A stretch of DNA of 64,000 nucleotides from a virus: IMG/VR virus record IMGVR_UViG_3300006735_000027, positions 9,143 to 73,142 of that record; one strand, 5' to 3'. This document shows positions 4,693-62,409 of the stretch, in pieces; within the stretch, counting starts at the first letter, position 1, and each line of letters begins with the position of its first letter. A program made the translations under genes and the position numbers. The notes beneath the pieces are model-generated. The model was not told the origin of the DNA and made no database searches. It was given only the letters and a program-made list of their open reading frames with translations.

Positions 4693-6183
4693 ATGAATGA
4701 AAACGAAGCAAACACAAGTGCAGTTGTCCACAACATCCGAGCCGCAAAACGCGCGGTCTCGACCGTCAAGACGACGTTGGGGCCGATGGGAATGGACAAG
4801 ATGATGGTCGACGGCGGCGGAAACGTCATCGTCACCAACGACGGAGCCACCATCCTCCAGCAACTGGACATCACACATCCGGCAGCCAAGATGGTCGTCG
4901 AGGCGGCCAACACGCAGGAAGACATGTGCTACGACGGAACGACAAGCACGGTCGTGCTTGCAGGTGAACTGTTGGGCAACAGCGAACTGCTGTTCAGCAA
5001 GGGTCTGCACGCCAACATCATTTGTCGTGGCTACCGTAAGGCAGCCAAGTGGGCCACAGAGCACTTCGAGACTCTGACCGTCGACGCTCCTCTGTCCAAA
5101 GTGGCACGCACGTCCATCACCGGTAAGGCGTTGGAGTCCAGCATGGAGCACGTCAGCGAACTGTGCGTGACTGCTGCAGAGAACGCCAATGGTGATTACT
5201 CGCGCGTTCGCGTGCTGTCCCAGCCGGGCGGCTCACTCGATGACTCGTACTGTTTCCCCGGCGTCGTACTCCACAAGGAGTTCATGCTCCCGGCGATGCC
5301 TGATGAGCCTGCGCCCAAGGTGCTGCTCATCAACACTGGGCTCGGTGAGGGTAAGAAGGACGACAACGTCCAACTCAGCCTGTCCTCAGCGCAGGAATAC
5401 ACCCAGTATCGCAAGCAGTCCAGCCGCGATGAGTGGGTCGAAAAGGCCCAAGCCATCGTGAGCGTGTTGCCCGACGGCGGCACCGTGTTCTGCAGGGACA
5501 CCGTGAACGAGGTCGTAGCGGCCAGTCTGGCCCGTCACAACATCGCCGTGGTCCACCGTGTCCCAGAGAGCGACATGACTGCCCTGTCCCGCCTTCTCGA
5601 CGCCAGCGTCGGTCACAGCGTCGAAGACATCACCGTGGCGTCGGACGGCGACGTGACGTGCCAGACCATTGGCGACATGCGCTACGTGGTCGTCAAGGGC
5701 GAAGGCGAAGTGACCACACTCGTTCTTCGCGGTGCAACGCGACAGACCCTCGACGAGACTGAGCGCGGCTTCGAGGACGCCCTCGGTGTCGTTTGTCTCG
5801 CTCACAACAGCGGTCAATCCGTGGCCGGGGGTGGCTCAGCCTACCTCAACGCAGCGCTTCATCTCCGCTCTCGTGCGGCCGAAGCCGGTGGACGTGAGCA
5901 GATGGCCATCGAAGCCTTTGCGGAGGCGCTGGAAAGCATCCCTTCCACCATTGCGGAGAACGCGGGTCACAACCCACTCGACACCGTTCTGGCACTGCGC
6001 AACGAGCACATGCAAGGCAACAGCGACGCTGGACCCGACATCGAAGGTGGCGGTGCCTGCTCCATGGTCGAGCAAGGCGTGTTCGAGCCGCTCGACTTGG
6101 TCCGCCAAGCCGTTCAGTCGGCCAGCGAGGTCACCATCAGCATCCTGCGCATCGACGACATCATCGGCAAGCGTGGCGAGTGA
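4693..6183 (+). CDS. ths: Group II chaperonin (thermosome subunit)
   Basis: Motifs are TLGPMGMDKM, VTNDGATIL, YDGTTS (GDGTT variant), TLVLRG, GGGSA, IAENAG and ILRIDD. Confidence 0.97.
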   Translation: MNENEANTSAVVHNIRAAKRAVSTVKTTLGPMGMDKMMVDGGGNVIVTNDGATILQQLDITHPAAKMVVEAANTQEDMCYDGTTSTVVLAGELLGNSELLFSKGLHANIICRGYRKAAKWATEHFETLTVDAPLSKVARTSITGKALESSMEHVSELCVTAAENANGDYSRVRVLSQPGGSLDDSYCFPGVVLHKEFMLPAMPDEPAPKVLLINTGLGEGKKDDNVQLSLSSAQEYTQYRKQSSRDEWVEKAQAIVSVLPDGGTVFCRDTVNEVVAASLARHNIAVVHRVPESDMTALSRLLDASVGHSVEDITVASDGDVTCQTIGDMRYVVVKGEGEVTTLVLRGATRQTLDETERGFEDALGVVCLAHNSGQSVAGGGSAYLNAALHLRSRAAEAGGREQMAIEAFAEALESIPSTIAENAGHNPLDTVLALRNEHMQGNSDAGPDIEGGGACSMVEQGVFEPLDLVRQAVQSASEVTISILRIDDIIGKRGE

Positions 6184-26200: not shown

Positions 26201-26978
26201 TGCTCGAAGTAGCGCTCGTTGAAGCCGAGATTGACGGCGAGGTGGTGATGGTCGTAATCGGGCTGACGGGCTCTTCAAACCGCCACAAGCCAAGCGTGTT
26301 GTCGCTCTTGACTGGGGCATACTGCTGGTGACCGGAGGGCATCGCTCCACTGGACCAGTGAATGGCTTCCAGTGTCCCACGGAAATCACCGCCGCGACCT
26401 CCGAGGTACATGCTGTTCTGCTGTGGCACCAGTTCATGCACTTCATCAAGCGTCTTCGACACCGCCAAATCGCCATTGATGAGCAGGCTGAGAATGCGCC
26501 CGTCAAACATTGCAGTCACGTTGAGCAACTCTCTGTGCCCTTCGTTGAACGCCGTCACGTCGTCTCGCTCAACGTCGGTGGCGAGGTAAGCGTCGTTGAC
26601 CTCATCGCTATGCGGGAACAGCACCCCGTCCCAGTATGCGAGCCGACCGTTGGCCTTCGTGACCGGCTTGGCCGTGGACAGTGAGAAAACTGCATCTCGT
26701 CCACTGGCTTGGTTGCGCAGACGAATCTCAAACGTTGCTGGGGCCGGACTGCTGGGACTGCCGACTGTGAGTCGCATAACGTTCTCTTGCTCAAAGATGG
26801 TGCCTCCTGAGTCAGGGATGAACCACGTCTCAAGGGTGAACGCCGACAGTGCATTCGGCAGAGACTTACGCTCTTCTTGCTGAAGACCATGAACAAAGTT
26901 CTGGTTCACCGGAACCAGAACGCTGTCGCTTACGCCGTTGAAGCGCAAGCCGAATCCGGGGTCTATGGTCAGCGTCAT
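11253..26978 (-). CDS. Giant 5241-aa virion/tail protein with N-terminal LamG (ConA-like) domain
   Basis: This is one uninterrupted 15.7-kb ORF. The LamG signature is GLRFNGVSDSV...FTLETWF...LLING...MYLGG...FRGTLEAI...LGLWRFEE. It also has repeated beta-rich T/S/G modules and tail-module context. Confidence 0.8.
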   Translation of the reverse strand: MTLTIDPGFGLRFNGVSDSVLVPVNQNFVHGLQQEERKSLPNALSAFTLETWFIPDSGGTIFEQENVMRLTVGSPSSPAPATFEIRLRNQASGRDAVFSLSTAKPVTKANGRLAYWDGVLFPHSDEVNDAYLATDVERDDVTAFNEGHRELLNVTAMFDGRILSLLINGDLAVSKTLDEVHELVPQQNSMYLGGRGGDFRGTLEAIHWSSGAMPSGHQQYAPVKSDNTLGLWRFEEPVSPITTITTSPSISASTSATSSINIGATAAQTLVDELSGQSGLTSLDFTASPYSGGSYKVTVYSASSSSDVSIPKVPYNILVNPLAYSQTTGKPTNKAPERLRLMAIDASAGTITVESIHLDFASNASTGRRGALMAHDAGRFVIITGDCIVDTGEGNEFQPYGSGTQFSQRQSQVIIDESDFEHSGIMFSQSMAIDDHEYNKFSASTTNMGSKFVAGHSGRHTLNHVVSHPFMGTLPPTSTHEVEKKLDISSDVISASFPSQFSDIRSTVPMNSVVSSFDTHGPMTVRSVVAAGGVNTLVENGMSDIADSKRAILAIGGSNFDPAPFMLKAVSGNQETGDTKFMVPSSEARIATLSLPRLRSYSYAPFVQIHYDAIDFEGSQFTVGATSRLTTGISGANKVLTLQSAKSFGYDGQSIPASGISIGGVVASTTAGVTAIINHSAKTLTLSAAAQSSFVTLAVTGAIVQKADNSPKLMVTKTLPDVATELASGYSILDLIRDSMAIEDLELVAPGGIIEFETPDMFVFEDGELEGEHAEGTVAESVLDRSLCPENYLPLTSSDPVQTTPQAIAVANADLQSRGSIFHRLLVRADETDSVGFEDTGGFSVRKATNGARPRTGVRINNGSGYSSSTSSAMTVDGVDATTVIAVNDILYKSNGKNLGKVTAVTSTSVTIGGGTSDALVDNDELFTQPQMVGRGTVNQSSCVHEFFDIIEHTTKGKKTRLIVQPSDRARLNMLSKMLTGTDSSNTVTIESLVARGRVVSFSDDDDGQTVMRAHGVIGDLASSSVSVKGSAAPDSHIVKEIMPGAPVITMMLGGGGQGAVNTKETWDPSPLGRLAWNTRRDCQAVVSSTSSTTVVVLPLNNKADDLQSWGTYCFPKVGRIYLQLATNQGEGIEFASAEYTSKTGTTFTFASGTGHLGTDKFVLADGSEADSLAAWITATSITAGSVIHLDDKFSEETMCNDGTTINDRLFQTLDTVQHDYQLGTQYASTRALVEIPLFEDFFFDNAERGIFPGPDNSMKLHIDATHTAHSWNPSPVGRRPEAVAPRDPELFGPFSFTVQNQSHRSGTKVTRPYDSGNSRVYVEDANLFPIPSAPPVEVAELGGSARYRRAFLASGEWVTYSARNTTDHYLTVVDSGDDHAFSEHFLRDIKVGAHIFPSPGYQDMSHPGIADNPSLISAGHESRRPFYFDRANVMTQGGNVDYGLRQYVSAIELRAGPTSNPHLPRIVNKRPRAKAVSVTGSPATSITLDDATLFPIASHDSNYKFRVGWKDAAGTTYRGFYDNRVGNVLTIVSPDSGFTPAVGDEIFVEDLHDTTGNQFPQTLETFLNRAWAHPFCGGGLRQGDTVWMNMHYTNPHAIEGLFCKSRGTLNEAEVWSGFNGGVSGPNVSPRDSIPMENFLIGNTCTETAQNLVQHINKTIQLNYEALKTSATAPVVAYIDPYQCTEDFARILLYDVAHDREFIAFQDLHMQVQTSAAASTIGNETSFKTPIHSAATSGSGLDVAAGFPSQNKNIISTHKSDFIESAYAHNSDWNESVTDGLSTHYVGGADDLATDGFSDRTNSATVKTAADDALAKHQKIDADTRERSTFFDTPDGTRVVPAFLGMKGIRAGTLDLTSHDETRLKYLEHWTKMDFVRRLTVDLGEVALRDGVTSIESAALEVVRLINQAGAKNGKTHARRPNDQFLGESSKFNLASPGPKSSAFGTNIDPAATHLHADFAATASTHDPAPFWDPSKAFSSHDRGTHMGYVRAHLGRVVLDSDGRPGFSIVIHSTVPGAAGRNFCTWLDSSKAQSPYRPQFLIGHGGRFRNYWCQPDEVTGENMHPAPMPINRFGRPFAPITTLKEHLPPENPNDAFLNNLDFGPDRVDSTTALTDASREGGSGRNANTALNESFETKSPASVLVDGLRVGTQARARINFGGLTQAGIPGWAPDVGKWGFGNDGTESNLQSRYGTASNVADAMTVTTEGSADGYIPQADLKAENIGKSPLYGLRFVDHRGDNHTIRFVYRQNEQKFASDNTYLPPTLDEEILIHFDDRDVSQGGFTVGAHMVGTGEVCGEKTGGTAKKFKGNLWNNYPSPIVGAKATTSLSSGTMTITLGASYDTSAPAVLQTHPDLLGYLGFPESGMFQLSKASSGAQGLTFYYTSRTHNGHAGPHKFFGVIGGSSSHSNGDWYLSPRINFTCLLTDEVMAAAVEHAISGTTETFDCRDMFAPDGRTLGEWGVSADAIHVVARNTDRVRLGRLFDVRRTKDFGLMDGATSDAVVSSKHTGGLSNAEVDAGTRLDVGYIPETVLHITTKYRGSNANTATPVLVDSQNNIVDVTTWQRNLRGENFIDVPGDLVIPRVDSPIIEVHTFNGGGGGALSTIEVASNESLALLGKLASDDADTWGEPLIVWYSTTEYAEVRSKPGASSVTQLDVVTHSANFAVVAGDTLFKGTTRASDAVRTDGVRRAGSKNASPFLYFRGGRDSPDHWVPLYFGGGFSGAVVDINDGTQNDYADFYTHPYASGPTGSAGFQNIGEMAGSHALIDTNAMLAMFPGTPYLDQHRGQNHPPFFNQDALLSYDMAKGANTKATGLTYTDGSRSVAINVPTPLILRFAHPHARYSATGDSADQTIYMIFGPGQAFPHNTAAHEPQGANIVTTGNGYSAVPIYIGGNTAKDSFLPNQLANGDATEHSGLNRTSSAAAHLPMTTFFQQNNTRGFNYPMNWQPAKGFPNTNATGSKTYSQTLAKAFYFEGSVATTSNLPKHYHPFNFVFSDLAGASIGSATHTTTRKSSVIWHMDGGYHPGGHFLDDHVSKNPKNPVASARISTGSGNKHNGTSFRPAGLLAKAYRSFYASAGSEGDQVVDENVVIVDATRCQNAEELGAVLSGAINTFPGNDPLKAIGGTFMPSMQNAHNQDRYGWVELPVVSYAAESGSTPASLVVTSTATTYPEYGWLRVSDGTSAGSAPYISHSVGSPNTTFTLAVSPGTTATNIVDSGLNPIAPGADFKAYIWTKAGTHRHNNTGTASRDHMTQVHFSGYHDAVDRTKPVGAVGWHGEAYSYLNSYEAETSVGADVHFAGLGAWHPLLGFSPYGAAETCLTGGAPTGATENPAATFVQDYCVTGLATRHLVAVAHEAELPIIAKADRDGISCTGDWLHMVQSTNIAHAGTTAWNTGKVHNRSRYVGPATAGPHVEAQIHSSLSVPIEESDYPAVGSAPSDAQWHRTIQSGDMVRANACRYPTGDLFWDESVVIQSGAHESASTLGVECIGVSSHDHYLNINAAATDMPHNGLFGYFSNRHAARNFLPEHVVWKRMDGGSLTMPAVNARGLGMIPWVQRKDSSDTDFKTVGEKVLGNVRFSFETTNAAMFPIIQAQELGHPQLAEQHPLEVRNALLIPNEDQQFKSMQVVDDTGQEHHLDGGSPLGTVILDFRHISDREIEGLAPALAGAGVNPNLRIRLPDADEIPGNIIIRSGFDRIQAYQTETIGSGGLQHPAQNITQIRQMFNNEYSGPRLWPTWENNGWEHLSQDAVDISTTKSDSRLKFPASTSEGWTDHTSNAPLESAYEPHDRNLFFHITRMGVSMTHRFDLDELTYSSHSGTEINVTSTPEAAVWTDTTEQSGGRYFLRVYDPATDKGVLASYTGVSTNKFTGVVYSPDFASFVLGKTGLKVVPSYYMPAGSTRMFAARRLRDHSEYSGASPDMVKLDWFDIYSDLPGSTGAMANPSAPYTRMTTPKMTPMPIPRMGHHYVTPTMAMMPGHYAHPAYQRLYSLNRACASSNHAPYEDSLIGNREGTRTSVTSTVLTHGNGRDPLVWFSTPTAPFGPSDIHGGAFTLLTETKLKYEGYGIAASAGANAGTINAQGGHTLVLEAANTYTMNNHFPDPLEVGAYQIIIQPNVFKQQLQGFHQNHATENKAPSESGTKVTELTGQQVNTVIAIEKNVSTRGAYALILAEAMMADVRGCEVILNEVILDIEPDASSQFTNLPPLALYNPLGVQESSSPAFTRRSLPYRPGMFQSATPGRTLTIPWWGILHKDGADAAGAAKFRHLEWHRPDNYYEFCRVGYGAVGAQMTLAGYPTSFLDLYEPHKRLRSLNPNCVVISDNGSSTITVDDNAMFPVKPYFGEVLEYTKNGVRYTATYTNRTGTLAHATLGESDTFSGVSGSAAFWANIGANTILRLSRPYDNGPSDDLFTRSEVSIMTRNLPQYANGSRDTNSLHAPDAFLCMWHPNLGRPFTWYSDDSSRAFYTNAGTADTPVDQKPLNHVPEHFETIHYHDFNYVASKGPFGLAMKWVVPPHDHDNNAGTALSHDGTLTTASDIDAKVDGAGTLNHQGGTVGSNKYNFSGFWPGGSHGGGAVSRMESYGHALIGWGSDTFGMDCETYQDSTGIATLSLPNDRNRCFGYRMAVRQLFNRPRWSPYVRGWLEVANSNAMLGYYHGPLIQQDSKTNGWDYVGSDSGQSDRTFDALYVGILERITQVSSLLGQDQIGRQVRYSDGRRMTGPFGCPVRTMRNASTTTRLFPNDEAGQGTEDLARAHRHYMVDWWGNTRGEEVRRFPVRGFGLRPSWDPEDAYADTNVTHRPAVNGLFGGDGNDRYSGNDNSGNNAASNMGTADWFNPASALRVGDRGDGRGVRWPTVFNESLLMAVSEPHDATGLVLSHSTAEPAFGQGLVRPSNATLQVGEIERGISDRVDLNSDDGLLKPSAHVGEGVETVNADTRGAEPVSRNDVRLGLDVDTIAELNDGVSREYVVMSTEASSLHTDRAVGQRTNIRGAYDVGSRTLKDLDMTALNWSDKPVSGVVKHSDAHAMWPLGGTYVMEWSKHAGVLDVKGWGKAGASTSSNPYQDSNHDPIKENVNYTDSTIEFLYRPAHTLDAKHSQLFRAFLNTGGRQAGSNFYRATAGGKYGLFTSDAPSARTGTPSSPPYAPVYDVDPASPTTADSNGPKIQGADVAGFDKTDVRSPVARMVMSENTLEHFRADASRRSADDDEGDFSVQPRHSQTLHPKGSKGDTSFNTGDHSGE

Positions 26979-41092: not shown

Positions 41093-41100
41093 TACTTAAC
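41093..41100 (-). promoter_or_regulatory. Putative TATA box of a leaderless late promoter for protease/MCP
   Basis: GTTAAGTA ends 25 nt upstream of ATG 41068, which has no obvious RBS. Confidence 0.5.
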
Positions 41101-44100
41101 TACCTACGAAGGACGGCCTTGTCTTCTGTGATGTCCAAAACACCTGCTTCTGTAGGCACGCTCATGCGCTTGGGAGGCTCGGAGTCTTCCGATTCTTCTT
41201 CAATGTCTTCGTCTTCTCCGGGGCGCTTTCGGTTGTCGTAGTCGGGCATGGTCTTCTCATCGTGGAGATTGGTCGGACCCATGGGTGATTCGATGGGTGT
41301 TGCGTAGTCAAAGCCCAGACCCTTCGCACCTGCGTTGGCTGCGCCTACAGCACCAATGCTACTCTTGAGAAAGCGGTCGACAAGTTCCAGACCTTTGACG
41401 AGCACCTTGGCCTTCTGACGATTGTCCCACCAAGAAGTGTCCTTGACCTTCTTGGGTTCAATGAGAGGTTCAGCCTCCTCTTCGGATTCATGCACCTCCT
41501 CTTTGATTTCAAGGTTAGCCTTGAGCAAAGCGCCTGCTACCGGTCCCCAGTAAGGTCGCTGACTTTCAGACAGGCGAATGATGTAGCGGTTGTCGGCCAA
41601 GGGACTATGCAGCGTCCACATGCCACCAGATTCTGTCGCCTTATAGAGCACGTCGCCTTGCGGCATGACGACACGAACGCCTGTGCTGGCTCGCTCGACT
41701 TCGCAAAGCCACTGCGGTCCGACTGACTTCGCCAGAAGACCCAGCGTTTCGCGGCTGACCAGAGGCTCGCCCTCGGCCTCACCTTCAATCTCAGAGCCCA
41801 TGATGGTGAACACTGGGTCTTCGACTGAGTTCTCAACACGACTGACGTTGGCGACGTTGACGCGAACGTGGTCACCTTCGTTGAACTTCTCAGGACTGTT
41901 GAACGCTGCGCCCACATCCATGTAGGTGTCGCCGTCGGCCTCGACCGCGCGGCTGCCAATGGCCTCTTCACGTGTAATAGGGCCAGTGCCGAGACGGTAC
42001 GTGTAGGGACCTACACCCCGTCGCTCAAGCACACGGAGCACCACGTCTTGGCCGGGACGTAGCATGACCCACTTGGGATGACGCATCTCACCAGCCATGT
42101 AGACCGACTTCGCGTCTCGGAGCAGAATGTTCTCATGGTCTTTCTGCAACGACTCAACGGCCAACTTCAGACCCTCGTCGTCGGTTAGGCGTGTGTCGCT
42201 GGCGCTCGGCGTGTGAATGTTGTCGATACCTTCCATGCCGCCACGTAGAATTTTGATGCGGTCGTTGAGGGGTACGTCGTGAACTTCCTTGCCGGCAAAC
42301 TCAAGCACGTCGAAGATGTAGTAGCCGTCTTCCAACTTGACGACGTCCGCTTTGTACTCGTGGTCGGTGACCTTCTGAAAGTTCTCTTTGTCCTCGTCGG
42401 ACAGCGAGAACGTCGACGTGATGTCGTCGTCATCGTCCTTCTCAACAAAGCCTCGCTCGCCTTCCGGCATGTGCGAAACAATCCAGTCACCTGTGAAACC
42501 GCGCAGATGCTCCAAGTCTTCCAACTTGAAAATGCGGTGCATCGGCTGGAGCAAGGGGACTTTCGGACCCAACTCTTTGCGGATGATGTCTGGGTTGGTC
42601 AGGTCGGCCAGCCCCAACTCAGACTTCACCGAGTTCGTGCTCCCCTGATTGCGTGCAAGCCCTGTCGACGTCGGCTTCGTGTGAGCAGCCTGTCGCTCAA
42701 GCGTGTTGAGTGCTGTACGAGCACCGGCGTGGTCAGGATGCTTCAGCATGTGCATCCATGCGGCAGGGGCGACGGCATTCCAAATGGTTTCCGTGGGTTG
42801 GACAAGACGCATGGGGATGCCCTGCGCACTCGGCATAATGCTGACCTCGCCGTCGAATCCGATGCGGAAATTGAAGTTCGGATGGAACAGGTCGCCGTAT
42901 TCGTGCGCCAAGCCCGAGGAGTTGTACAGACTGTGGACTGAGTGCCCATGCGGACCCGCTGCATCGACCGGCACGGGTGCTCTACCGCGCTTCGTTTCCG
43001 TGACCGACGAAGCCGCCTCGACTTCGGGCAGGAAGGTGACGAGGCTGTCGAGATGCTGCTTGGTGTTCCAATACTTGCGCTCGCGCTGGTTGCCGCCGCC
43101 AGCAGGCTTCTTGGTCAGAGGTTCGTATTCACTGCGCCGTGAGTCCGCGTTATACGCTTGCGTGAACTGCATACCCAATTGCTGGTTGCGCTCATCTGCC
43201 TGATAGCCGATGGTGCGGTGAACGCGACCGACATCCAGTTGCACGTCCATAGCAGCGCGCTGCTTCTTCATCTTCTCAGCCTCGGCAGCGATGTCGCGGT
43301 CAGGGTGCAGTTTCTCCATCAACTGGCGCACGGACATCACAGGCGCAGGCGGCAGACCCGCACTCATTCGTGGAATGATGACCTCTTGCAGGTAGTCGCT
43401 TGCCAACTTCGTATCGTGAGGAGAGTTGGCGTCGAGACCAAGATGCTGGAGCATATTGTTGAACGTCTCTCCTACGTCTGCCATGGGGTCAAACTCGAAC
43501 GGCTCTCCGTGCTCATGCCCAAGGCTCTTGATTTCATGACCAAGGCCAGCGTGACGCTTCTGTCCCACCTCATGCTCGGTCGTACCCATGGTGTGGATGC
43601 CGTGCGTTCCGTGAGGAGCGGCGTGAAGGAACTCGTTGCCCATGCGAGCCAGCATGCGCATGTTGGCCTCGACCGTTTCGTGAGGCAAGTTGGGGTTGAG
43701 GATGTGGTCCCGCGTTTCGGGGTCCATGCGGTCAACAATGTGCCGCACGGCTTGACCGATGGCGTGGTCGTCAGCACGGAGCCGGTCGGCGAGGACGTTG
43801 CGTTTTCGATGAGCCTGACCTGCTTTGGGACTGAGTGTAGCAGTCACCTGAGAACCAGTCTCAGACAGCCCTGTTTCGAGGCGAGCCAACTCCTCGTTGA
43901 GTTCGGACATCTGGTCGCGGTAAGCCTGAAGTTGACTTCGCGTCGCACCTTCGCTCTGAGCCTGAGCCATCTCATTCTGCAGCGCTCCGACACGCTCAGC
44001 GAGCATGAAGTAACGCTCTTGGTCTTCGGTCGCAGGCTGAGCCTCGCTGATGCGTGGCTCCAACTCACCGGAAGGAGCGGTGCCTGCAGGGAAATTGACG

Positions 44101-46847
44101 CCGTAGTTGACCATCACGTTAGTATCGGGGTCGTCGTCCAGAGGCGCCTCGCCAAAGCGGTACATGCGGCGCTCGTGAGTCGAGTGCAATCGCTCTTTGC
44201 GACGAGCGTATTCTTCTTCCAACTCTTGCTGGCGACCTTCAGGAGCGACGCGCATGCGCTGCTCAAACTCAGCGTCCAGTGCCGCCAATTCGCGTGCAAG
44301 GTCTGCGGAGGCAGGTGGCTCATCCCGATGCTGCAACTCCTCCATCTGCGCGTCGTGGTCCGCCAGACTGGACGTAAGGCGACCGCGGTCATCGGTCAAA
44401 TGAAAGACGTGCTGCTGCGGGTCCATGGGGGCACGAGCAAAGCCCATCATGGTCGCAATGGCATGATGATGCTGACTGTGATGCTTGTCGAACGTCTCCT
44501 CGTTGTAGGCACCACCTGCAACACCGAAGGGGTTCTGCCCAGTCAAGTGCTCTGATTCTTTCCCAGTTCTGCGTTGATGAGCCAATTCCGCAGCCTCCCT
44601 GTCGCCAGATTCACGGGCATCATGGTATTCACGCGCCAACGTGTTGTGGTATGCACCGTCAACCGTGGTCGCGTGGCGGTTATAGTGTGCGTTTTGGCCA
44701 CCTGAGCCCTTGATGCGCGACGACACGGACACGTTGTGCGGGTTCATGGTCGAGCCCGCGTCAGCATAAGTCGGCTCCCCTCTTGGGTCTGAATCTGCGG
44801 TACCTTGCCCTACATTTTGAACAGTGACCAACTTTTTACCCTGCATCATGCGGAACAGTTGCGCTTCGCGCTGACCAAACGGCCCGATGAAGGGGACCAT
44901 CGAGGCCCCGTCATCTTCGTGACGTGTCCTAATACCAGTGCGTGTGCGTGAAAACATCAGGCTGTCTTCTTGCTTTCCGCGAAGCCCAGCAACGCCAGTT
45001 CGCGCTTCGACAGGGTTGAACTGTGTCGTGGTCTGAGGCACCAACTCTTCACCATAGAACTCGGCCAGCGCCTTCGCCTCTTCGTCGGGAGGGAGTTCAA
45101 CTTCTTCTGAATCGAACAACTTCGTGTGATGGTGAAGCAGGTTGAACAGTTCGTTGGGGCGCTTACCCATACCGCCACGCATCCATGGCTTTTTCCAGAA
45201 CGTGGCCAACGTCGTGTGGTCGCCGTTCGCATAGCCGTAGTGTTCCGGGTCAACATGCGTGCCGAAATGGAAGATACCGTGGTTAGTCGCCATGCGAGAG
45301 GCAGCCGCGACCTCCTTGGCTGATTCTTCACGAGTGCGGAAGATTTCGTCAATCTCGTCTTGCGTGAACACCTTGTCGGGTCGACTGTGAAACATACCGC
45401 CGCCCAGTCCCAAGTAATGTGGTGCGCCGGCCGGCAAAAGTTTCCGAGTTTCTGGGTCCACACCCAACATCGCAGCCATCACCAAGTAGGAAGGTGCAAC
45501 GCCCGGCTCCATGCTTCCATCGGCTCTTTTTCGAGGTTCCGTCGAGCGGTGAGTGACGCTGACGGTGCCATCAGTATGCTGTGTGATGTGAGGTGTTTGA
45601 CTGGTAAGAAGCAGGTCCTTAGGTTGCAGTTGATAGCCGTTCAATCGAGCATCCTCCTGCAAACGCAAGTTGTACTCCTTGACGGCACGCTCCCAAGCAT
45701 TACCTTCCTTACCTGCTGTGCTATGGTTCCTCATGGCGCTGAGCCCGTGCACCTTCTCGACGTACTCAGCCTTCTCAGGTAGGCGGATGGGTCGATTCAT
45801 CACAGGCTCAGTTGGCATGCCGACCGGACGCACCCAGTGGTCGTAAAGTCCAGAAAAGCGTTGGTGAAAGTTGCGAACAAAGCGAGGTATCAGATTGGCC
45901 CCGTTGGCTATACCGGGGACACTGAACGGCTTCTGTGATTTGGAAGCACCGTGTTCGCGCAAGTGCTCGTAGAAATCGTGCCGCTGCTCAGGCGTCAGCC
46001 ACTCAAGCCCCATGAGGTAGTCCATCAGACCAAAATCCTGTGACCACTCAGCCTTGCGCTGATTCATGTGAGCATCACGCTTCGCTTGCTCGCCCTGCTG
46101 CACCGTGAGTTCGCCACGACCGACAGCGTCGTCAATTTGACTGGACGCTTCTTGCCCTTGACCTCTCGACCATTTCAGGTAGTTCTCGTCGTAGAGACCA
46201 TGGTTGGTTGCGTATTCAGTGTCCAGTTCACCGTAGTGGTGAGGCTTGAGCATGAAGCGGTGGTCACCTTCACGGGCATGCGTTTCCCAATCGGCCTCAC
46301 GCGCACTGTCGTGTTCGCTTTGACCGCTGCTGTAAAAGTCCGCGACATGCTCGTGGTAGCGGTCGTGCAGTGGGTTGAACTGTGCGGAGCCCAACGGGTC
46401 GTGCGTTCGGTAGGGGTCCTCGGCGTTGCCGTCGACCATCTCAAACCCACGACCAGTAAGCGATTGACCGGGCTCAGGAGGGACGACGCGCATTTCGTCA
46501 TAGGACGGGTTGTCGGCCAAGCCCATGCCGGCACCGTGACTCAGCGCATAACCGACTTGCGACTGCGCAAGGCCAGAGCCCACCATGGGACCTGCTTCAG
46601 CCTCAGCCTCCAGACTCACCGCGCCCTGTGTGCCAGTGGTCTGGGATTCGTCTTCCTTGCGGATGACGGCGTGGAACATCTTGACGAGTGCATCATCGCC
46701 AGCGTCGAGGAGGTAGCCGTGGCGCTCTGCGTTCACGACTGCGAGGAAGAAGTCTGCGCCGGCATCGGCCTTCCCAATGCCGTCGAGCAGTGAGGCGGTG
46801 AAGGTCTGCCTTGCCCTGTCGAGGGAATCGAGGGGACCGTCTCGCAT
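41100..46847 (-). CDS. 1915-aa head-module protein with C-terminal degenerate ATP-dependent DNA ligase (NTase + OB) domain
   Basis: Ligase-like motifs are WIVSHMPEGER (I, Lys absent), YYIFDVL...PLNDRIKIL (IIIa) and ENILLRDAKSVY..G..RHPKWVMLR (IV/V). I do not recognise the N-terminal ~1400 aa. Confidence 0.7.
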   Translation of the reverse strand: MRDGPLDSLDRARQTFTASLLDGIGKADAGADFFLAVVNAERHGYLLDAGDDALVKMFHAVIRKEDESQTTGTQGAVSLEAEAEAGPMVGSGLAQSQVGYALSHGAGMGLADNPSYDEMRVVPPEPGQSLTGRGFEMVDGNAEDPYRTHDPLGSAQFNPLHDRYHEHVADFYSSGQSEHDSAREADWETHAREGDHRFMLKPHHYGELDTEYATNHGLYDENYLKWSRGQGQEASSQIDDAVGRGELTVQQGEQAKRDAHMNQRKAEWSQDFGLMDYLMGLEWLTPEQRHDFYEHLREHGASKSQKPFSVPGIANGANLIPRFVRNFHQRFSGLYDHWVRPVGMPTEPVMNRPIRLPEKAEYVEKVHGLSAMRNHSTAGKEGNAWERAVKEYNLRLQEDARLNGYQLQPKDLLLTSQTPHITQHTDGTVSVTHRSTEPRKRADGSMEPGVAPSYLVMAAMLGVDPETRKLLPAGAPHYLGLGGGMFHSRPDKVFTQDEIDEIFRTREESAKEVAAASRMATNHGIFHFGTHVDPEHYGYANGDHTTLATFWKKPWMRGGMGKRPNELFNLLHHHTKLFDSEEVELPPDEEAKALAEFYGEELVPQTTTQFNPVEARTGVAGLRGKQEDSLMFSRTRTGIRTRHEDDGASMVPFIGPFGQREAQLFRMMQGKKLVTVQNVGQGTADSDPRGEPTYADAGSTMNPHNVSVSSRIKGSGGQNAHYNRHATTVDGAYHNTLAREYHDARESGDREAAELAHQRRTGKESEHLTGQNPFGVAGGAYNEETFDKHHSQHHHAIATMMGFARAPMDPQQHVFHLTDDRGRLTSSLADHDAQMEELQHRDEPPASADLARELAALDAEFEQRMRVAPEGRQQELEEEYARRKERLHSTHERRMYRFGEAPLDDDPDTNVMVNYGVNFPAGTAPSGELEPRISEAQPATEDQERYFMLAERVGALQNEMAQAQSEGATRSQLQAYRDQMSELNEELARLETGLSETGSQVTATLSPKAGQAHRKRNVLADRLRADDHAIGQAVRHIVDRMDPETRDHILNPNLPHETVEANMRMLARMGNEFLHAAPHGTHGIHTMGTTEHEVGQKRHAGLGHEIKSLGHEHGEPFEFDPMADVGETFNNMLQHLGLDANSPHDTKLASDYLQEVIIPRMSAGLPPAPVMSVRQLMEKLHPDRDIAAEAEKMKKQRAAMDVQLDVGRVHRTIGYQADERNQQLGMQFTQAYNADSRRSEYEPLTKKPAGGGNQRERKYWNTKQHLDSLVTFLPEVEAASSVTETKRGRAPVPVDAAGPHGHSVHSLYNSSGLAHEYGDLFHPNFNFRIGFDGEVSIMPSAQGIPMRLVQPTETIWNAVAPAAWMHMLKHPDHAGARTALNTLERQAAHTKPTSTGLARNQGSTNSVKSELGLADLTNPDIIRKELGPKVPLLQPMHRIFKLEDLEHLRGFTGDWIVSHMPEGERGFVEKDDDDDITSTFSLSDEDKENFQKVTDHEYKADVVKLEDGYYIFDVLEFAGKEVHDVPLNDRIKILRGGMEGIDNIHTPSASDTRLTDDEGLKLAVESLQKDHENILLRDAKSVYMAGEMRHPKWVMLRPGQDVVLRVLERRGVGPYTYRLGTGPITREEAIGSRAVEADGDTYMDVGAAFNSPEKFNEGDHVRVNVANVSRVENSVEDPVFTIMGSEIEGEAEGEPLVSRETLGLLAKSVGPQWLCEVERASTGVRVVMPQGDVLYKATESGGMWTLHSPLADNRYIIRLSESQRPYWGPVAGALLKANLEIKEEVHESEEEAEPLIEPKKVKDTSWWDNRQKAKVLVKGLELVDRFLKSSIGAVGAANAGAKGLGFDYATPIESPMGPTNLHDEKTMPDYDNRKRPGEDEDIEEESEDSEPPKRMSVPTEAGVLDITEDKAVLRR

Positions 46848-57476: not shown

Positions 57477-57537
57477 GCGTTAGGCCACGACCTTGGCCAT
57501 CATAACGGTTTTCAAGGCAAGTGCCCTCGGTTTGACG
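57477..57537. promoter_or_regulatory. Divergent overlapping archaeal-type promoters
   Basis: On the minus strand GAAAACCG-TTATGA (TATA-like, 57505-57500) lies 24 nt above the terS ATG. On the plus strand TTTTCAAG (57509-57516) lies about 22 nt above ATG 57538. Confidence 0.45.
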
Positions 57538-57819
57538 ATGCGTCTACCCCGCGCTCAGCCTCGAATCCGAGGTGTTCCGGTGTCCATTGAAACCGCCAGA
57601 AGCCTGAGCAAGGCTGCGCGAGACGTGTTGCTGCGGCGACGTGTACCCGAAATGGTGCAAACTCAGCGCCTTGAAAAGTGCCGCTCATGCACCAGTTGGG
57701 ATGCTGTCTACAGTCGATGCACAGAGTGCGGCTGCCAGATGCGCGTCAAAGCCGCTCTATCGTCAAGCGAATGCCCGCTCAAGAAGTGGGGACCTCATAT
57801 CTCGGAAATCCGAGAGTAG
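57538..57819 (+). CDS. Cys-rich protein (DUF6171-like pattern)
   Basis: The sequence RLEKCRSC...RCTECGCQMRVKAALSSSECPLKKW matches this pattern. It is the only credible plus-strand gene in the structural block. Confidence 0.7.
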   Translation: MRLPRAQPRIRGVPVSIETARSLSKAARDVLLRRRVPEMVQTQRLEKCRSCTSWDAVYSRCTECGCQMRVKAALSSSECPLKKWGPHISEIRE

Positions 57820-58037
57820 ATGCCGCCGAGCATGAAGAACGCGCCAAAGAGACCTGCCACCAGATAAGCCATGGTGTCGCTGTCTAATTGACCCGAGGCC
57901 AGAAGTAGAATGGCTCCGAGTGCCACGATGATGGAAAGCAGTTGCACCATCACCATGTCGATGATGACGCTCTTCATAGGTGCAAAAATCTCCATGGTCG
58001 TCGAAGCAAAGCCGTACATTGAATCCTGAATCATCAT
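57795..58037 (-). CDS. Small membrane protein with 2 TM segments (GTPase operon gene 6)
   Basis: Hydrophobic segments are VIIDMVMVQLLSIIVALGAILLLA and MAYLVAGLFGAFFMLGGIY. It has an ATGA overlap with the upstream gene. Confidence 0.75.
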   Translation of the reverse strand: MMIQDSMYGFASTTMEIFAPMKSVIIDMVMVQLLSIIVALGAILLLASGQLDSDTMAYLVAGLFGAFFMLGGIYSRISEI

Positions 58038-58675
58038 CTCATCCCCATCATTTTGCCCATGAAGGTACCTGCGGCACCGCCAGCCTTGTCCATGAAACCG
58101 TCATTAGCCAGTGCGGCACTCAGAGCGCCACCCATCATGCTTTGTTGAGCAAATGTTGCGATTTGCTGTTGCTGCATTTCAGCCTGCTGAATGTTCTGCT
58201 GACTGGTCATCTTCAAAGAATTGAACTGACTGGTAACGTTCTCCGCACTCATGGTCTGCAAGTTGGATGGTAGGCTCGTGATGTCCATTTTCATGGAGCC
58301 TTCGTCTTCGTCAATCGTGAACACCGCGTTCTTGAGAATCTCAAGCACTGAGAACGACACAAGGTCATTCATCATCTGCAAGAGTGTGGCCATGCTGGCC
58401 CCTGCGATGAAGCGGTCAATAGGAGCGAGCGTGCGCATCAACGCCATTTGAATTTCCATCTCACTGGGCGGCGCCACTGGTTGTTGCATCATGCCCTGCT
58501 GCATGCCCATACCACCAGCCATACCACCCATGAATGGATGCTGCTGCGCTTGTTGCATCATACCACCTTGAGATGCGAATGGGTTTCCAAAGGATTGAGA
58601 GCCTGCTCCCGACTGAGGCATACCCCCACTGGCACCCAAATTAAGTGCCCCAGAGTTCTGCTGATTACCAAACAT
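58034..58675 (-). CDS. Gln/Met/Gly-rich protein (GTPase operon gene 5)
   Basis: The start MFGNQQ follows a GGGAGG RBS. A low-complexity N-terminus precedes a helical core. Confidence 0.7.
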   Translation of the reverse strand: MFGNQQNSGALNLGASGGMPQSGAGSQSFGNPFASQGGMMQQAQQHPFMGGMAGGMGMQQGMMQQPVAPPSEMEIQMALMRTLAPIDRFIAGASMATLLQMMNDLVSFSVLEILKNAVFTIDEDEGSMKMDITSLPSNLQTMSAENVTSQFNSLKMTSQQNIQQAEMQQQQIATFAQQSMMGGALSAALANDGFMDKAGGAAGTFMGKMMGMR

Positions 58676-58688
58676 TTCATCGCCTCCC

Positions 58689-59699
58689 TTACTGTGTGAA
58701 CAGTCCCGGCTCACTTTGAGGCAGTTCGGCCTGAGCCATAGAGGCTTCGACGACCGGATTGCTCTGCGCTACGTTGTGAGCCGGGCGCTGCATGATGCCC
58801 AAATTGGTGATGGCATCGGATAACTGCGGTCGTGTGGCCAGCACTTCTTTTTGGAACAAGCGGAGGTCAAACACAATCATGGTCACGTCATTGATACCTG
58901 TCTCTGGATTCTGATAGTGAAGGAGATTGATGCCCGGTTGCACCTTGGAATCCTTCTCCAGTTCCATGAAAAACGACTCGTACTTCTTGAGAAATTCAGG
59001 CGTGTTGTCCTTCTTCCTAACCACAGCGATTGGAACGGCCACAGTCGAAACACCTTTCTTGACCATTTCACGCATACCGGTCTTGGTCTTGTTGTGGTCC
59101 TTGTCGTTTTCAGACTCCCACTTGCAGAGCAAATGGTAGAGGTGCAAGTGCTCAGGGCAATACGTCCCCTTCATCTTGGCACCGTTGGTGACCTTTTCTC
59201 TTGCCACGAAGGGCTCAGGTGTCTGCGTCACCGGGTTGCGCCAGTAGAGTTCCCACAGACTTTTGCCTGTCTGCTCATCAGTAATCTTGGCATACAAATT
59301 GTCGTACTGAATGAGTTCTTCGCAATTGCAGCCATCGACCACGCACAAGTTGCTTTGTCGGTTATACCGATACTTGAGGCCGCCCAACCAACGAAGCGGG
59401 TTGTACCAAGGGCGCTTGGTCGGCTTGAGCAACTTCCGCGCTTGACGAATGTCTTGCTTGCGAGCCTTACGAGGGTCAGGGTGTCGGCTGGGGTAGAAGT
59501 TGACCTTTGGCACTTCGATGTTCTGCTTGCCTGCCATTTGTCGCATACCCTGCTGAGCGGCCTGCATCTCCAACAACTGTTCGTGACTGGCGTTCCCTTG
59601 CTGACTTAGAGCCACCAAATGGGCCTGACTCATTGTGGCAAGCCCTGCATCACTTTGCGGCACTTGCCCATATCCACCAAATCGCTTGCTCATCATCAT
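58689..59699 (-). CDS. Hypothetical protein with Cys/His metal-binding motifs (GTPase operon gene 4)
   Basis: It has CVVDGCNC...YCPEH and an aromatic/basic stretch KRPWYNPLRWLGGLKY. A GGTGA RBS precedes ATG 59699. Confidence 0.7.
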   Translation of the reverse strand: MMMSKRFGGYGQVPQSDAGLATMSQAHLVALSQQGNASHEQLLEMQAAQQGMRQMAGKQNIEVPKVNFYPSRHPDPRKARKQDIRQARKLLKPTKRPWYNPLRWLGGLKYRYNRQSNLCVVDGCNCEELIQYDNLYAKITDEQTGKSLWELYWRNPVTQTPEPFVAREKVTNGAKMKGTYCPEHLHLYHLLCKWESENDKDHNKTKTGMREMVKKGVSTVAVPIAVVRKKDNTPEFLKKYESFFMELEKDSKVQPGINLLHYQNPETGINDVTMIVFDLRLFQKEVLATRPQLSDAITNLGIMQRPAHNVAQSNPVVEASMAQAELPQSEPGLFTQ

Positions 59700-59707
59700 A
59701 TTCACCT

Positions 59708-60430
59708 TCAAATCGTAAGGAGGTCCATCATTGAATTTTCTACGTTCCAGCCAATGCGCGTCGCCATCATACCCCTCTTCGTAGGAATCCCCGCCTTTTG
59801 AAGACGGACGAGGTCTTCGCGGAACGGGTCGTACATCTTGTGCTCACCGAGCCGCTGTTGCTGCCAAAGAACGTTGGCTTGTTCATCCCACCAATGGTCT
59901 GCCTTATTTGCCACGAGCATGATGACCTTCGGAACGTACTTCTTCCCCTTCATCCAAGAACGTAGGTTGCGATAGCGGTACTGCCGATGAAGCAAAGCGT
60001 CGACGAGGTACTTGAACCCGCCAACGGCCTGTATTGCGGGGTCACCGCCCTTCGCACTGCGATGGTCAAAAAGAAACACGACTGACTCAACCTGACGATT
60101 GACCATGTCGTCAATCCAAAGGTTCCAGAACCGCTCTTCTCCGCCAATGTCGCTTGAGTACACAACGCGCGTATCGCCCTTATACGACACGCGTTTCCTC
60201 GTTGGGGAAGGAAGTAAAAAGCGGTTGATACCGGGCACCTTGAAGTGCTTGGTGCGTTCTTCAATGGGAATCTCCTCCATCTCTCCGGGGGTGGTCATGT
60301 ATCGGTCAAGAGTCGTTTTGCCTACCAGAGGAGGACCATAGACGCCGACGCGTCGCGGTTTCCAGTAATGCCATAATTCACGAGCAAACACCATGCCTCC
60401 GACGAGTGCTGTACCACCAATCGCCGTCAA
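59708..60430 (-). CDS. Small Ras-superfamily (Arf-like) GTPase with N-terminal hydrophobic helix
   Basis: Motifs are G1 GPPLVGKTT, G2 ERT, G3 DIGGE, VVFLFD, G4 VANKAD and G5-like MAT. The N-terminus is AIGGTALVGGMVFARELW. Confidence 0.85.
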   Translation of the reverse strand: MTAIGGTALVGGMVFARELWHYWKPRRVGVYGPPLVGKTTLDRYMTTPGEMEEIPIEERTKHFKVPGINRFLLPSPTRKRVSYKGDTRVVYSSDIGGEERFWNLWIDDMVNRQVESVVFLFDHRSAKGGDPAIQAVGGFKYLVDALLHRQYRYRNLRSWMKGKKYVPKVIMLVANKADHWWDEQANVLWQQQRLGEHKMYDPFREDLVRLQKAGIPTKRGMMATRIGWNVENSMMDLLTI

Positions 60431-60431
60431 A

Positions 60432-60689
60432 TCAGTCCCTCCACGAAAAAATACTGTCCGACCACGACTGTAGTTTCAACTTCAACCAGTCACCTGTGAC
60501 TTCCCACAGACTCCAATCACTGTAGAACTCGATGCCACTGATGGTGAAACCGGTGATGATGGAAAACACAATGGCCTTGAGCCAGCCCCAGCCACGCTCG
60601 TAAGCCACGTCAACGGTGTTGGCGATGTGCATGCTGCGCAGCGTTTCCTCAACAGCATCGTCCGACGGCGTCTTGAAGATGCGCCCCAC
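60432..60689 (-). CDS. Small membrane protein with 1 TM segment (GTPase operon gene 2)
   Basis: It has GWGWLKAIVFSIITGFTISGI and a Trp-rich amphipathic C-terminus. Confidence 0.75.
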   Translation of the reverse strand: MGRIFKTPSDDAVEETLRSMHIANTVDVAYERGWGWLKAIVFSIITGFTISGIEFYSDWSLWEVTGDWLKLKLQSWSDSIFSWRD

Positions 60690-60695
60690 GCATCA

Positions 60696-61250
60696 TCACT
60701 CCTTCTTCTTGAACTTCCCATCAGGCCCGCGCTCGCGCTTTGCTTCTTCTTCGGATGTGAAGTCCAGACCAAGGCTGAGTGGTGCCGTAGGCTTGGGTTC
60801 TTCGGGAACAAAGTCAACCGTCGAAGACGTGCGTCCAGTCAACCTTGCCTCAATCCAAGGGGGCGTCTTACCGGGATTCTTCTCCATCCACTGAAGTTCG
60901 GCCTCCAACTGAGCCTCCTGCATGCGCATCTCCATGTCTTGGCGACGACGGTCAAAGGTCATCTCCATCGAGCGGTAGCGATTTTTGCGCTGACGTTCCA
61001 TGGACGAAGCACGTGCGCGCTCGTCCATGCCCTGCTGAAAGAACATCTTGAACAGGTAATAGGCCAAGCCTTGCACAGCGAAAGCGGCCATAGCATAGGT
61101 CACACCGTTCAAACTTGGCTCATCCAATTCAAGCCAGATGCCCGCATCGAAGATGGCGATGGCCAGTCCGATGGTGACGGCTTGAGTCAGAATCAGACCC
61201 ATCAATCGAATTTCTGCTTGGTCTCCGCGAGGTGGTTCAAGGTTGCTCAC
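60696..61250 (-). CDS. Membrane protein with 2 TM segments and a coiled coil (GTPase operon gene 1)
   Basis: TM segments LMGLILTQAVTIGLAIAIF and VTYAMAAFAVQGLAYYLF are followed by a charged coiled coil. A GGGGGAG RBS precedes the GTG start. Confidence 0.78.
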   Translation of the reverse strand: MSNLEPPRGDQAEIRLMGLILTQAVTIGLAIAIFDAGIWLELDEPSLNGVTYAMAAFAVQGLAYYLFKMFFQQGMDERARASSMERQRKNRYRSMEMTFDRRRQDMEMRMQEAQLEAELQWMEKNPGKTPPWIEARLTGRTSSTVDFVPEEPKPTAPLSLGLDFTSEEEAKRERGPDGKFKKKE

Positions 61251-61287
61251 GCTGTTCTCCCCCTGATTGGCGGACGAGTACGGGCCT

Positions 61288-61293
61288 CTTAAA
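61288..61293 (-). promoter_or_regulatory. Putative TATA box (TTTAAG) for the GTPase operon
   Basis: It lies in the 142-nt intergenic gap, 38 nt above GTG 61250, leaving room for a short leader with the RBS. Confidence 0.5.
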
Positions 61294-61337
61294 CAGGCAC
61301 CCTACCCACTTAAGTACACCAAAATGGCGGAGCGGAG

Positions 61338-61371: not shown

Positions 61372-61392
61372 AAATGCAGGCAGTCATCTGCC

Positions 61393-62409
61393 TTAGTCTT
61401 CCTTCTTTTCGGAGTCCAACTTTTCCCGCTTGCCGTTCTTCGACGGTCCGGGTCCAGCCTTGGAGCCAATGACGATGACCATGCCATGCGCAGGCTTCTT
61501 GCTCTTGTCGGCCTTGGCCATGCAGTGCATCTTTCCAAGGCAGTCTTTCTTGTTGCAGGTAGCACAGACGTCCTTCTTGGTAAGGTGCATCTCGTGCATT
61601 CGCGTGTTCACTTCTTTGAGCAACTGGTCTCCAATTCGCATATTCTCACCTGTTTTGACGCCGAATCCTCCAAACTCCTGTTGCCCCTCGAATCCGGTCA
61701 GCGCCTGATTACCCCGAGCGAGCGTGGGGTCAAAAATGACTCGGTCAGCCGTGGCGTTGCTGCTGACGTTCGCAAGGTCACCCGTACCACCCTGCCCAAA
61801 GCCCGCGGTACCAAGCCGACCGGCTTCCTGTCCACCGAATGAGGATGAATCTGTTGGAGGGAGGTCAAATGGATTGAGGAGATTGGTCAGGGCAACTCCT
61901 GCAGCGGGACCATACTGGCCGAGTGCCTGAACTGCGCGTCCGCCGTGACGAACAAACTTGTTACCACCAACGGAAGAAAGACCCCGTCCCACCGCGCCAC
62001 GAGCACCACCCGTGTAGCGAACAGAAGGGCCGGCTCTCGCTGCAGCGGCCGCTCTTGCACCCTGTCCTGCACGAACACCCTTACCGGTAAGTCGAACATA
62101 TCCTCCCGGACCCACACCTTGGAGTGCACCTGTTGCCGCTCCGGCGACACGTTGCCCCGTAGTCGGGTCTTCTATGACGTGCTCTCCAGCAATGCCAGCG
62201 GTGACTGGGTCTCGGAACGTTGCACCTGCATGTATGCCGGGGTCAAGGCGACCGGTTTCTGGATTAACGAAGCGCCCACCGTAACCTTGGTATGCGCCAA
62301 CTCCTCCAAACGCGCCTGCTGCAATCAAAGCAGCGAGTGGAATTGCCTTTTCGATGTGCAAGGCTTCCCATGCCGGCTCAAACGAGGACTCCGGCATGTT
62401 GTCCCCCAC
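61393..62409 (-). CDS. Gly/Ala-rich protein with hydrophobic glycine-zipper segments (putative internal/pilot protein)
   Basis: It has AWEALHIEKA-IPLAALIAAGAFGGVGAY, many GxxxG motifs, and a C-terminal CATC...C...HC with a basic tail. Confidence 0.6.
   Translation of the reverse strand: MGDNMPESSFEPAWEALHIEKAIPLAALIAAGAFGGVGAYQGYGGRFVNPETGRLDPGIHAGATFRDPVTAGIAGEHVIEDPTTGQRVAGAATGALQGVGPGGYVRLTGKGVRAGQGARAAAAARAGPSVRYTGGARGAVGRGLSSVGGNKFVRHGGRAVQALGQYGPAAGVALTNLLNPFDLPPTDSSSFGGQEAGRLGTAGFGQGGTGDLANVSSNATADRVIFDPTLARGNQALTGFEGQQEFGGFGVKTGENMRIGDQLLKEVNTRMHEMHLTKKDVCATCNKKDCLGKMHCMAKADKSKKPAHGMVIVIGSKAGPGPSKNGKREKLDSEKKED

Follow-up and report, generated by a model that had tools for sequence, protein, structure and literature searches.

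The window analysed here is a stretch of 64,000 nucleotides (nt) of viral DNA (IMG/VR virus record IMGVR_UViG_3300006735_000027, positions 9,143 to 73,142). Our main finding in it is a block of six genes, g1 to g6, that includes a divergent Arf-like small GTPase. Judged from its sequence, this block is a conserved, self-contained late-type cassette of magroviruses, in which the GTPase (g3) is accompanied by two to three small membrane proteins and by virus-specific Cys/His and Gln-rich proteins. The reading that we prefer, with a probability of roughly 40%, is that these proteins would act on the host membrane at a late stage of infection, under the control of a GTP switch and most likely to bring about release.

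All six open reading frames (ORFs) are on the minus strand and follow one another head to tail from 57795 to 61250, where an initial annotation made from the sequence had placed a tightly packed six-gene block. From g1 to g6 they are:

60696-61250, minus strand: g1, 184 amino acids (aa), with two hydrophobic segments, an Arg/Glu/Met-rich coiled-coil-like stretch and a basic C-terminus
60432-60689, minus strand: g2, 85 aa, with one hydrophobic segment, a Trp-rich tail and a strongly conserved N-terminal region of 35 residues (MGRIFKTP start)
59708-60430, minus strand: g3, 240 aa, divergent Arf-like small GTPase, with G1 at residues 32-40 (GPPLVGKTT), G3 at 94-98 (DIGGE), G4 at 175-178 (NKAD) and G5 at 222-224 (MAT)
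58689-59711, minus strand: g4, an ORF of 340 aa, whose likely true start is an ATG near 59699
58034-58714, minus strand: g5 as an ORF; an alignment of relatives puts the true start at 58675, giving about 213 aa
57795-58037, minus strand: g6, 80 aa, with two hydrophobic segments, the last gene of the block

The GTPase and its relatives

The full set of G boxes had been claimed for g3. G1, G3, G4 and G5 are found, and their key residues are invariant in 27 relatives. The same is true of R59 and T60 in the “ERT” motif, where T60 is a plausible candidate for G2. Over 13 family sequences, down to 22% identity, G32, G37, K38, D94, G97, N175 and K176 are invariant and D178 of NKxD is nearly so. The protein has the P-loop G1 pattern of the Ras superfamily, GxxxxGK[ST], together with DxxG and the guanine-specific NKxD.

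The catalytic position of switch II, just after DxGG, is variable. The window has Glu here; close relatives have Glu, Gln or Asp, and the more distant members have Gln, His, Ala, Phe or Asp. The Gln that is catalytic in Arf proteins is absent from g3 of the window, with Glu in its place. Furthermore, g3 has two basic insertions, around residues 76-80 and 150-165.

The AlphaFold2 model of g3 (predicted local distance difference test, pLDDT, 70.9; predicted template modelling score, pTM, 0.71; residues 36-52 below 50) starts with an N-terminal helix, after which strands and helices come in the order of a G domain. The helix is predicted at residues 3-23, in agreement with the suggestion of a hydrophobic N-terminal helix as in Arf. 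Its first half is uniformly hydrophobic (residues 3-15), and residues 15-25 are amphipathic, aromatic and basic (moment 0.62 over 11 residues). In family-profile alignments it aligns with the N-terminal helix of 8OUN.

A Foldseek search with this model gives at least 500 PDB matches at E <= 0.001, and ranks 1-50 are Rab, Ras, Rheb or Sec4 entries, or the tubulin-cofactor complexes 9edr and 9edt. After re-ranking with VIA-align, chains of the Arf family are on top: Arl8b (Z 14.4, root mean square deviation 2.7, 161 residues aligned), Arf1 (14.3) and Arl1 (13.9). Further rows are a Lokiarchaeal RagA-like protein (Z 13.6), 9edr_G (13.5), Arl3 (13.3) and HodArfR1 (13.1), with Rab and Ras rows at about 11.6-12.3. 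A small-GTPase fold for g3 is well supported by these searches, with Z up to 14.4 over about 160 residues.

In terms of sequence, PDB small GTPases are reached only by a profile in which distant members of the g3 family are included. The profile of 27 close relatives has a best E-value of 0.39 against PDB, and the one with distant members added matches GerdArfR1 (8OUN) at E 5.9e-10. An 11-member profile without the two most Arf-like members matches 8OUN (E 2.5e-6), Arl8A (2.4e-4) and Rab-33B (3.4e-3). According to bioRxiv 10.1101/2024.02.28.582541, 8OUN and 8OUM are GerdArfR1 and 8OUK is HodArfR1, all Asgard Arf-related proteins; the same source gives as the defining Arf feature an interswitch toggle, which couples GTP binding to release of the N-terminal helix.

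The G3 region had been described as a close mirror of Arf. This stands in so far as the family consensus DigGqerfwnlW aligns with DLGGQLHFRNLW of 8OUN. However, a Rab-type fit is about equally good, with Rab-33B among the profile matches, and the catalytic residue is Glu, not Gln. The most distant member of the family, P0204, passes the Pfam Arf profile (36.2 bits, cut-off 22.3) and is the sole member to do so.

We found 475 relatives of g3 at E <= 0.001 in a set of 5.8 billion proteins, and the 120 listed are 68-93% identical. With the 27-relative profile, 85 clusters were found at E <= 0.001 among 1.84 billion cluster representatives. A number of clusters as small as this indicates a tight and isolated family. 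Searching the “phages” collection with g3 by tblastn gave zero matches, and scans of viral contigs with the distant members P0128, P0157 and P0156 gave zero relatives.

From motifs and model we conclude that g3 is, by prediction, a genuine guanine-nucleotide switch of the Arf-like branch. Its sequence, we also conclude, appears too divergent for it to be filed as an Arf-family member.

The known proteins nearest to g3 are those of the Arf family (Arf1, Arl1, Arl2, Arl3, Arl8, Sar1 and the Asgard ArfR proteins). Compared with these, g3 has the Ras-type fold, Arf-family chains as best structural matches and GerdArfR1 as best profile match. The N-terminal helix is in the same place, G4 is NKxD, G5 is of the SA type, and the switch II pattern DxGG-x-x-F-x-N-L-W is common with 8OUN. 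On the contrary, g3 of the window has no Pfam Arf match at E <= 1, is about 60 residues longer through its two basic insertions, and has Glu for the catalytic Gln, at a position that is variable in the family. It is also encoded by a virus, and the first half of its N-terminal helix is plainly hydrophobic, not amphipathic.

Conservation and mobility of the cassette

We analysed 80 loci anchored on the GTPase, in which a count of 80/80 for g3 is true by construction. The genes g4, g5 and g6 are present in all 80, g1 and g2 in 79. A second sample of 80 loci was anchored on the large terminase to avoid this bias, and 32 of these have at least 9.9 kilobases (kb) upstream. All six genes are found in 32/32 of the latter.

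The ratio of nonsynonymous to synonymous substitutions (dN/dS), taken against the closest relative (L001), is 0.04 for g1, 0.06 for g2, 0.03 for g3, 0.02 for g5 and 0.05 for g6, with all six genes between 0.02 and 0.06. Such strong purifying selection argues that the six ORFs, including those of 80 and 85 codons, are real genes.

More distant clades were named after a member. In the P0126 clade (13 loci, GTPase about 39% identical), hidden Markov models (HMMs) of the window clade detect g3, g4 and g5 in 13 loci, g1, g6 and g8 in 12, and g2 in 9; at least two of the misses (L178 and L180) lie at contig ends. In the P0127 clade, g1, g3 and g4 are found in 4/4 loci. One of its loci, L085, also has a 72-aa g2-like gene (hhalign 68%, E 4.8e-5) and a 246-aa g5-like gene with an MGLFGN start (hhalign 42%, E 2.7e-4), each in the expected place. 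As for the P0145 clade (80 loci, GTPase 29% identical), the GTPase is present in 80/80 and is the sole gene found by HMM. The two genes downstream of it match g4 and g5 (hhalign 79% and 78%, E about 2e-5), and two small hydrophobic proteins are encoded upstream.

The flanks of the cassette differ by clade, with three contexts: the terminase block, a thermosome gene, or capsid genes. The block of the window adjoins the terminase and portal genes, on their upstream side. A viral thermosome gene (4820-6481 in L085, Cpn60_TCP1, E 1.7e-140) immediately precedes the cassette in the P0127 clade; the corresponding pair in the window is about 55 kb apart. In the P0145 clade it comes after a prohead protease (S78, E 4.1e-9), a major capsid protein (SU10_MCP, E 1.7e-8) and a SAP-domain gene.

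Thus the conserved unit is a five-gene core, g1 to g5, which keeps its order in four distant clades and moves as a unit. A core order that stays constant while the surroundings change is the strongest argument that these genes work together. The sixth gene was detected only in the window clade and the P0126 clade. The expected co-occurrence of six genes in related viruses is therefore true of the loci closest to the window (79 or 80 of 80, and 32 of 32), but across the four clades it narrows to g1-g5.

Across the 80 related loci g1 and g2 are a median 9 nt apart, g2 and g3 6 nt, and g5 and g6 7 nt. Spacing is wider at the edges, with medians of 157 nt upstream of g1 (minimum 53) and 299 nt behind g6, which supports a block set off by spacers at both ends. 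Genes of the same strand continue beyond the block on both sides. In L037, L051, L055 and similar loci, from the more distant part of the window clade, the GTPase gene and g4 are about 170-270 nt apart; the two ORFs overlap in the window.

Partner proteins

All membrane segments in g1-g6 are hydropathy calls. On this basis g1 has two segments plus a coiled-coil-like stretch, g2 a single segment and g6 two, each as initially annotated. No family match above threshold was found for g1 in Pfam, PHROGs or NCBIfam, and a match to PHROG 179 (tail terminator) is weak (E 0.011).

The Cys/His protein of the initial annotation corresponds to g4. In the alignment C123 and C185 are invariant, and C128, H188, H190 and H193, within the GTYCPEHLHLYHLL motif, are nearly invariant. 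The Atlas record of g4 begins at residue 5, in line with a start near 59699. The model of g4 has a pLDDT of 65, with a best PDB E-value of 1.3 in Foldseek and a best Z of 5.9 in VIA-align over 48,161 chains. A likeness to connexin or ferritin helical bundles was rejected, as Z 5.9 is within background. The fold searches that had been proposed for the cassette proteins thus identify g3 as a small GTPase and give no such answer for g4. A profile search gives 689 relatives of g4, and among the 120 listed there are zero with a Pfam domain or with a name other than “hypothetical”. Joint structure prediction of g4 residues 60-295 with the GTPase (score 0.03, mark 0.32) bears neither way on binding.

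The Gln/Met-rich low-complexity protein is g5, with 13% Met, 12% Gly and 12% Gln. Its low-complexity N-terminus is rich in Gly, Gln and Met and begins with MGLFGN in relatives. It also has an invariant PPS motif, a conserved domain with the pattern SLPxxLQTxSxEN, a stretch rich in Gln and a C-terminus rich in Gly. No match was found for g5 in Pfam, PHROGs, NCBIfam or Atlas, the last of which has no usable match for g4 either.

Both g2 (MGRIF..., 60687-60689) and g5 (MGLFG... in relatives, 58673-58675) start with Met-Gly and then hydrophobic residues, a start that persists as far as the distant P0127 and P0145 clades.

Virus and host

The virus record is linear, has 73,142 bases and is estimated to be 71% complete. 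Its gene content fits a virus of the magrovirus type, magroviruses being tailed viruses of marine group II (Poseidoniales) archaea. This assignment, which agrees with the magroviruses of PMC5434244, relies on marine viral contigs of about 90-110 kb that carry relatives, and on a relative on a contig of a Poseidoniales single-cell genome.

At this last locus, L169, all of g1-g6 and also g8 lie on a contig of viral size (106 kb), in a single-cell genome labelled Candidatus Poseidoniales. The locus links virus and host directly for the P0126-like clade. The g3 family profile gave zero matches in 300 other genomes from the order to which this single-cell genome belongs; the only match is in that genome, on the virus-like contig. 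Four other matches in genome contigs are on contigs of 8 kb to 100 kb, binned with unrelated bacteria or archaea, and these four carry the same viral cassette or core genes (g1, g3 and g4 in L170).

Proposed function

We propose the following course of events. The GTPase would bind GTP, as inferred from its conserved NKxD, P-loop and DxxG. The N-terminal helix would hold it on the host cytoplasmic membrane, next to g1 and g2 and, in viruses that have it, g6. When bound to GTP it would recruit or release g4 and g5, so that the membrane would be bent, vesiculated or breached late in infection, most likely for virion release. The catalytic residue of switch II varies (Glu, Gln, Asp, His, Ala), which suggests that g3 probably hydrolyses GTP slowly, or that a partner provides the hydrolysis. 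This would make g3 a timer or a switch, not a motor.

Several observations lead us to rank this membrane and release reading first: the Arf-like switch with its membrane-type helix, the presence of two to three membrane proteins, the standing of the cassette as a core unit, surroundings of the morphogenesis type, and the lack of a known egress system in tailed archaeal viruses, whose egress machinery is called “completely uncharacterized” in PMC10791045. A more specific version is a new GTPase-based egress system, where the Arf-type switch of magroviruses and its virus-specific partners would vesiculate or breach the host membrane and release tailed virions. In this full form we consider the proposal unlikely.

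Other results weigh against the membrane and release reading. The hydrophobic run at the N-terminus of g3 is too short for a standard membrane span, the membrane segments of all six proteins come from hydropathy, and g4 and g5, having no recognisable fold or family, are tied to membranes by nothing. The most holin-like gene, g6, was detected in just two of the four clades. The position of the P0145 cassette, between capsid genes and unannotated downstream genes, fits a role in the virion or its assembly equally. As for the Arf-like character of the switch, Arf rows are ahead of Rab rows by just about 2 Z units, and g3 of the window alone reaches no threshold in Pfam (E <= 1), PHROGs or NCBIfam and has no PDB sequence match. 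Its best NCBIfam match is TIGR00231 (E 0.054, 13.3 bits, cut-off 42.5).

Alternative explanations

A role in morphogenesis is the alternative that survives best, and even so we find it improbable. Here the GTPase and its partners would take part in virion assembly. They might, for example, form a platform on the membrane, or provide a chaperone step, timed by GTP, in the making of head, neck or tail. The neighbours speak for it, with protease, capsid and SAP-domain genes before the P0145 cassette, terminase and portal genes after that of the window, and a thermosome gene before that of the P0127 clade. The cassette is also universal in the terminase-anchored sample (32/32), as core morphogenesis genes are. 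However, late operons hold lysis genes too, so that position alone is not decisive; the late operon of phage lambda has its lysis genes immediately before the terminase genes, a position like that of the present block. The sole match to a structural family is the weak one of g1 to a tail terminator, and we know of no step in tailed-virus assembly that involves a small GTPase or integral membrane proteins.

Another explanation is a switch for host takeover or exclusion, which we hold to be rather more doubtful. A membrane-anchored GTPase would disturb host secretion or targeting by the signal recognition particle (SRP), cell division or receptor display, and would reprogramme the cell or block superinfection. 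An N-terminal anchor followed by an Arf-like G domain is the architecture of SRP receptor beta (PF09439), and three distant members of the g3 family match Pfam SRPRB (P0204 at E 5.9e-6, above the cut-off; P0202 at 0.089; P0145 at 0.19). The lack of a g3 counterpart in the 300 other genomes of the host's order is also what a virus-made tool would give. But g3 of the window has no SRPRB match, no partner like SR-alpha is present, and SRbeta chains are not among the 50 VIA-align rows listed. Exclusion and takeover genes are usually variable accessory genes, whereas this cassette is universal in the sampled lineage (32/32), is kept in four distant clades and is strongly constrained. Its neighbourhoods are of the morphogenesis type, not of the replication type.

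Less probable again is a role in entry, with g1, g2, g5 and g6, and perhaps the Gly-rich product of the upstream gene g0, packaged in the virion to form a channel in the host membrane for genome delivery, and with the GTPase as an accessory. It would account for small hydrophobic proteins and a Gly/Gln/Met-rich protein next to head and packaging genes. However, g0 was detected in just 29 of the 80 related loci, no ejection or pilot protein family was matched in PHROGs, and a nucleotide switch makes little sense inside a particle with no GTP supply.

Finally, we give very little credence to genes that do not cooperate and remain side by side only from shared ancestry, as the core order is kept while flanks change between three contexts, and inner gaps have medians of 6-9 nt (g1-g2, g2-g3, g5-g6) against 157 and 299 nt at the edges.

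Comparison with known systems

The known system closest to the cassette is the ArvA-ArvB-ArvC operon (OapABC) of Haloferax volcanii, whose partner genes were not detected in the cassette. PMC10927574 ties its GTPase to membrane vesiculation and describes the N-terminal helix as Arf1-like. Both systems have a small GTPase of the archaeal world with an N-terminal helix, in an operon with partner proteins. The partners are unlike, and it is by partner genes that we set the two apart. OapC (PF09845) was not found in the virus record, with positive controls in H. volcanii and M. acetivorans, and the six cassette proteins have no match to DUF2072 or DUF2073 at E <= 1.

On the side of the host, a search for OapC/ArvC (PF09845) gave no match in 101 genomes sampled from the order to which the single-cell host belongs, with Haloferax and Methanosarcina controls positive. 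Hosts of this order may thus be without the ArvABC vesiculation system, in which case the virus would supply a function that is absent from the cell.

Lysis cassettes (holin, endolysin and spanin; S-R-Rz in lambda) are similar in being compact, here as a block that adjoins packaging genes, and g6 and g1 have two hydrophobic segments each. They differ in that the present block has a GTPase at its centre, and no muralytic or other enzyme domain was found in the six products with Pfam, PHROGs and NCBIfam. Archaeal hosts of this kind have no murein wall.

Novelty and significance

In the literature searched, partly by title and abstract and with supplementary tables outside its scope, we found no description of a virus-encoded small GTPase of archaeal tailed viruses. 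The word GTPase has 0 occurrences in the main text of PMC5434244, PMC10160649 and PMC11706807, whose supplementary tables may list the gene. The initial statement that no such module is described is consistent with this, but the automatic annotation of the Joint Genome Institute (JGI) does name 3 of the 120 g3 relatives listed “GTPase SAR1 family protein”.

The cassette is a concrete candidate for the exit of tailed archaeal viruses, given as an open question in PMC10791045. Its natural host is uncultured, but a strongly constrained core unit of this kind, with a predicted nucleotide switch and membrane proteins, lends itself to expression, localisation and assays in model archaea.

Arf-like GTPases outside eukaryotes are, to our knowledge, few. 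A virus-only family of several hundred members bears on how Arf-like switches have spread and diversified. If the egress reading is true, viruses would hold a large pool of Arf-like GTPases, with the Asgard Arf-related proteins as the closest relatives by sequence among solved structures.

Block edges and upstream signals

The features at the two ends of the block are:

57493-57819, plus strand: convergent boundary gene outside the cassette, 108 aa, Cys-rich (phrog_13558, E 1.7e-14)
61257-61263, minus strand: ribosome-binding-like run GGGGGAG, after the TATA-like box
61287-61292, minus strand: TATA-like box TTTAAG, 37-42 nt ahead of the GTG start of g1
61310-61324, minus strand: conserved upstream element TTTTGGTGTACTTAA, about 60-75 nt ahead of the g1 start, an exact match in the window
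61393-62409, minus strand: g0, 338 aa, 18% Gly and 13% Ala, with an N-terminal hydrophobic segment and a C-terminal Cys cluster, directly upstream of the cassette

The convergent gene noted at the end of the block is there, and overlaps the 3' end of g6 by 25 nt. It also has a match to DUF6171 (E 3.7e-4) that is below the cut-off. A convergent Cys-rich gene is present after g6 in 52 of the 80 loci.

Of the two signals proposed upstream, the TATA-like box is favoured by the comparison with relatives. The pattern YTTAWDD occurs at -60 to -20 of the g1 start in 45 of 67 distinct upstream regions, compared with 28 of 201 coding control windows, an enrichment that may owe part to AT-rich intergenic DNA. 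The hairpin (61376-61391) does not hold up; its stem has 5 bp, and 3 such sites were found where 4.5 are expected from shuffles.

The conserved element TTTTGGTGTACTTAA is possibly regulatory, and close relatives have TTTAGT(G/T)ATACTTAA at its position. Its 11-mer core, TTTTGGTGTAC, is found in identical form at 61314-61324 (minus strand) and at 3936-3946 (plus strand), the latter upstream of an ORF that starts at 3988. It has 3 matches in the window at <=1 mismatch, a number reached by 3 of 100 shuffles, and may be a shared promoter element.

Other features of the window

A Pfam scan of the window covered 29 ORFs. Other genes of this virus include:

4693-6183, plus strand: group II chaperonin (Cpn60_TCP1, E 1.6e-128)
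Large terminase of the T4 type (PF17289, E 9e-9)
Portal (PF04860, E 1.5e-12)
Prohead protease S78
Major capsid protein of the SU10 type
ERCC4 nuclease

Two giant ORFs, of 5241 aa (11253-26978, minus strand) and 1915 aa (41100-46847, minus strand), are found in the structural region of the virus.

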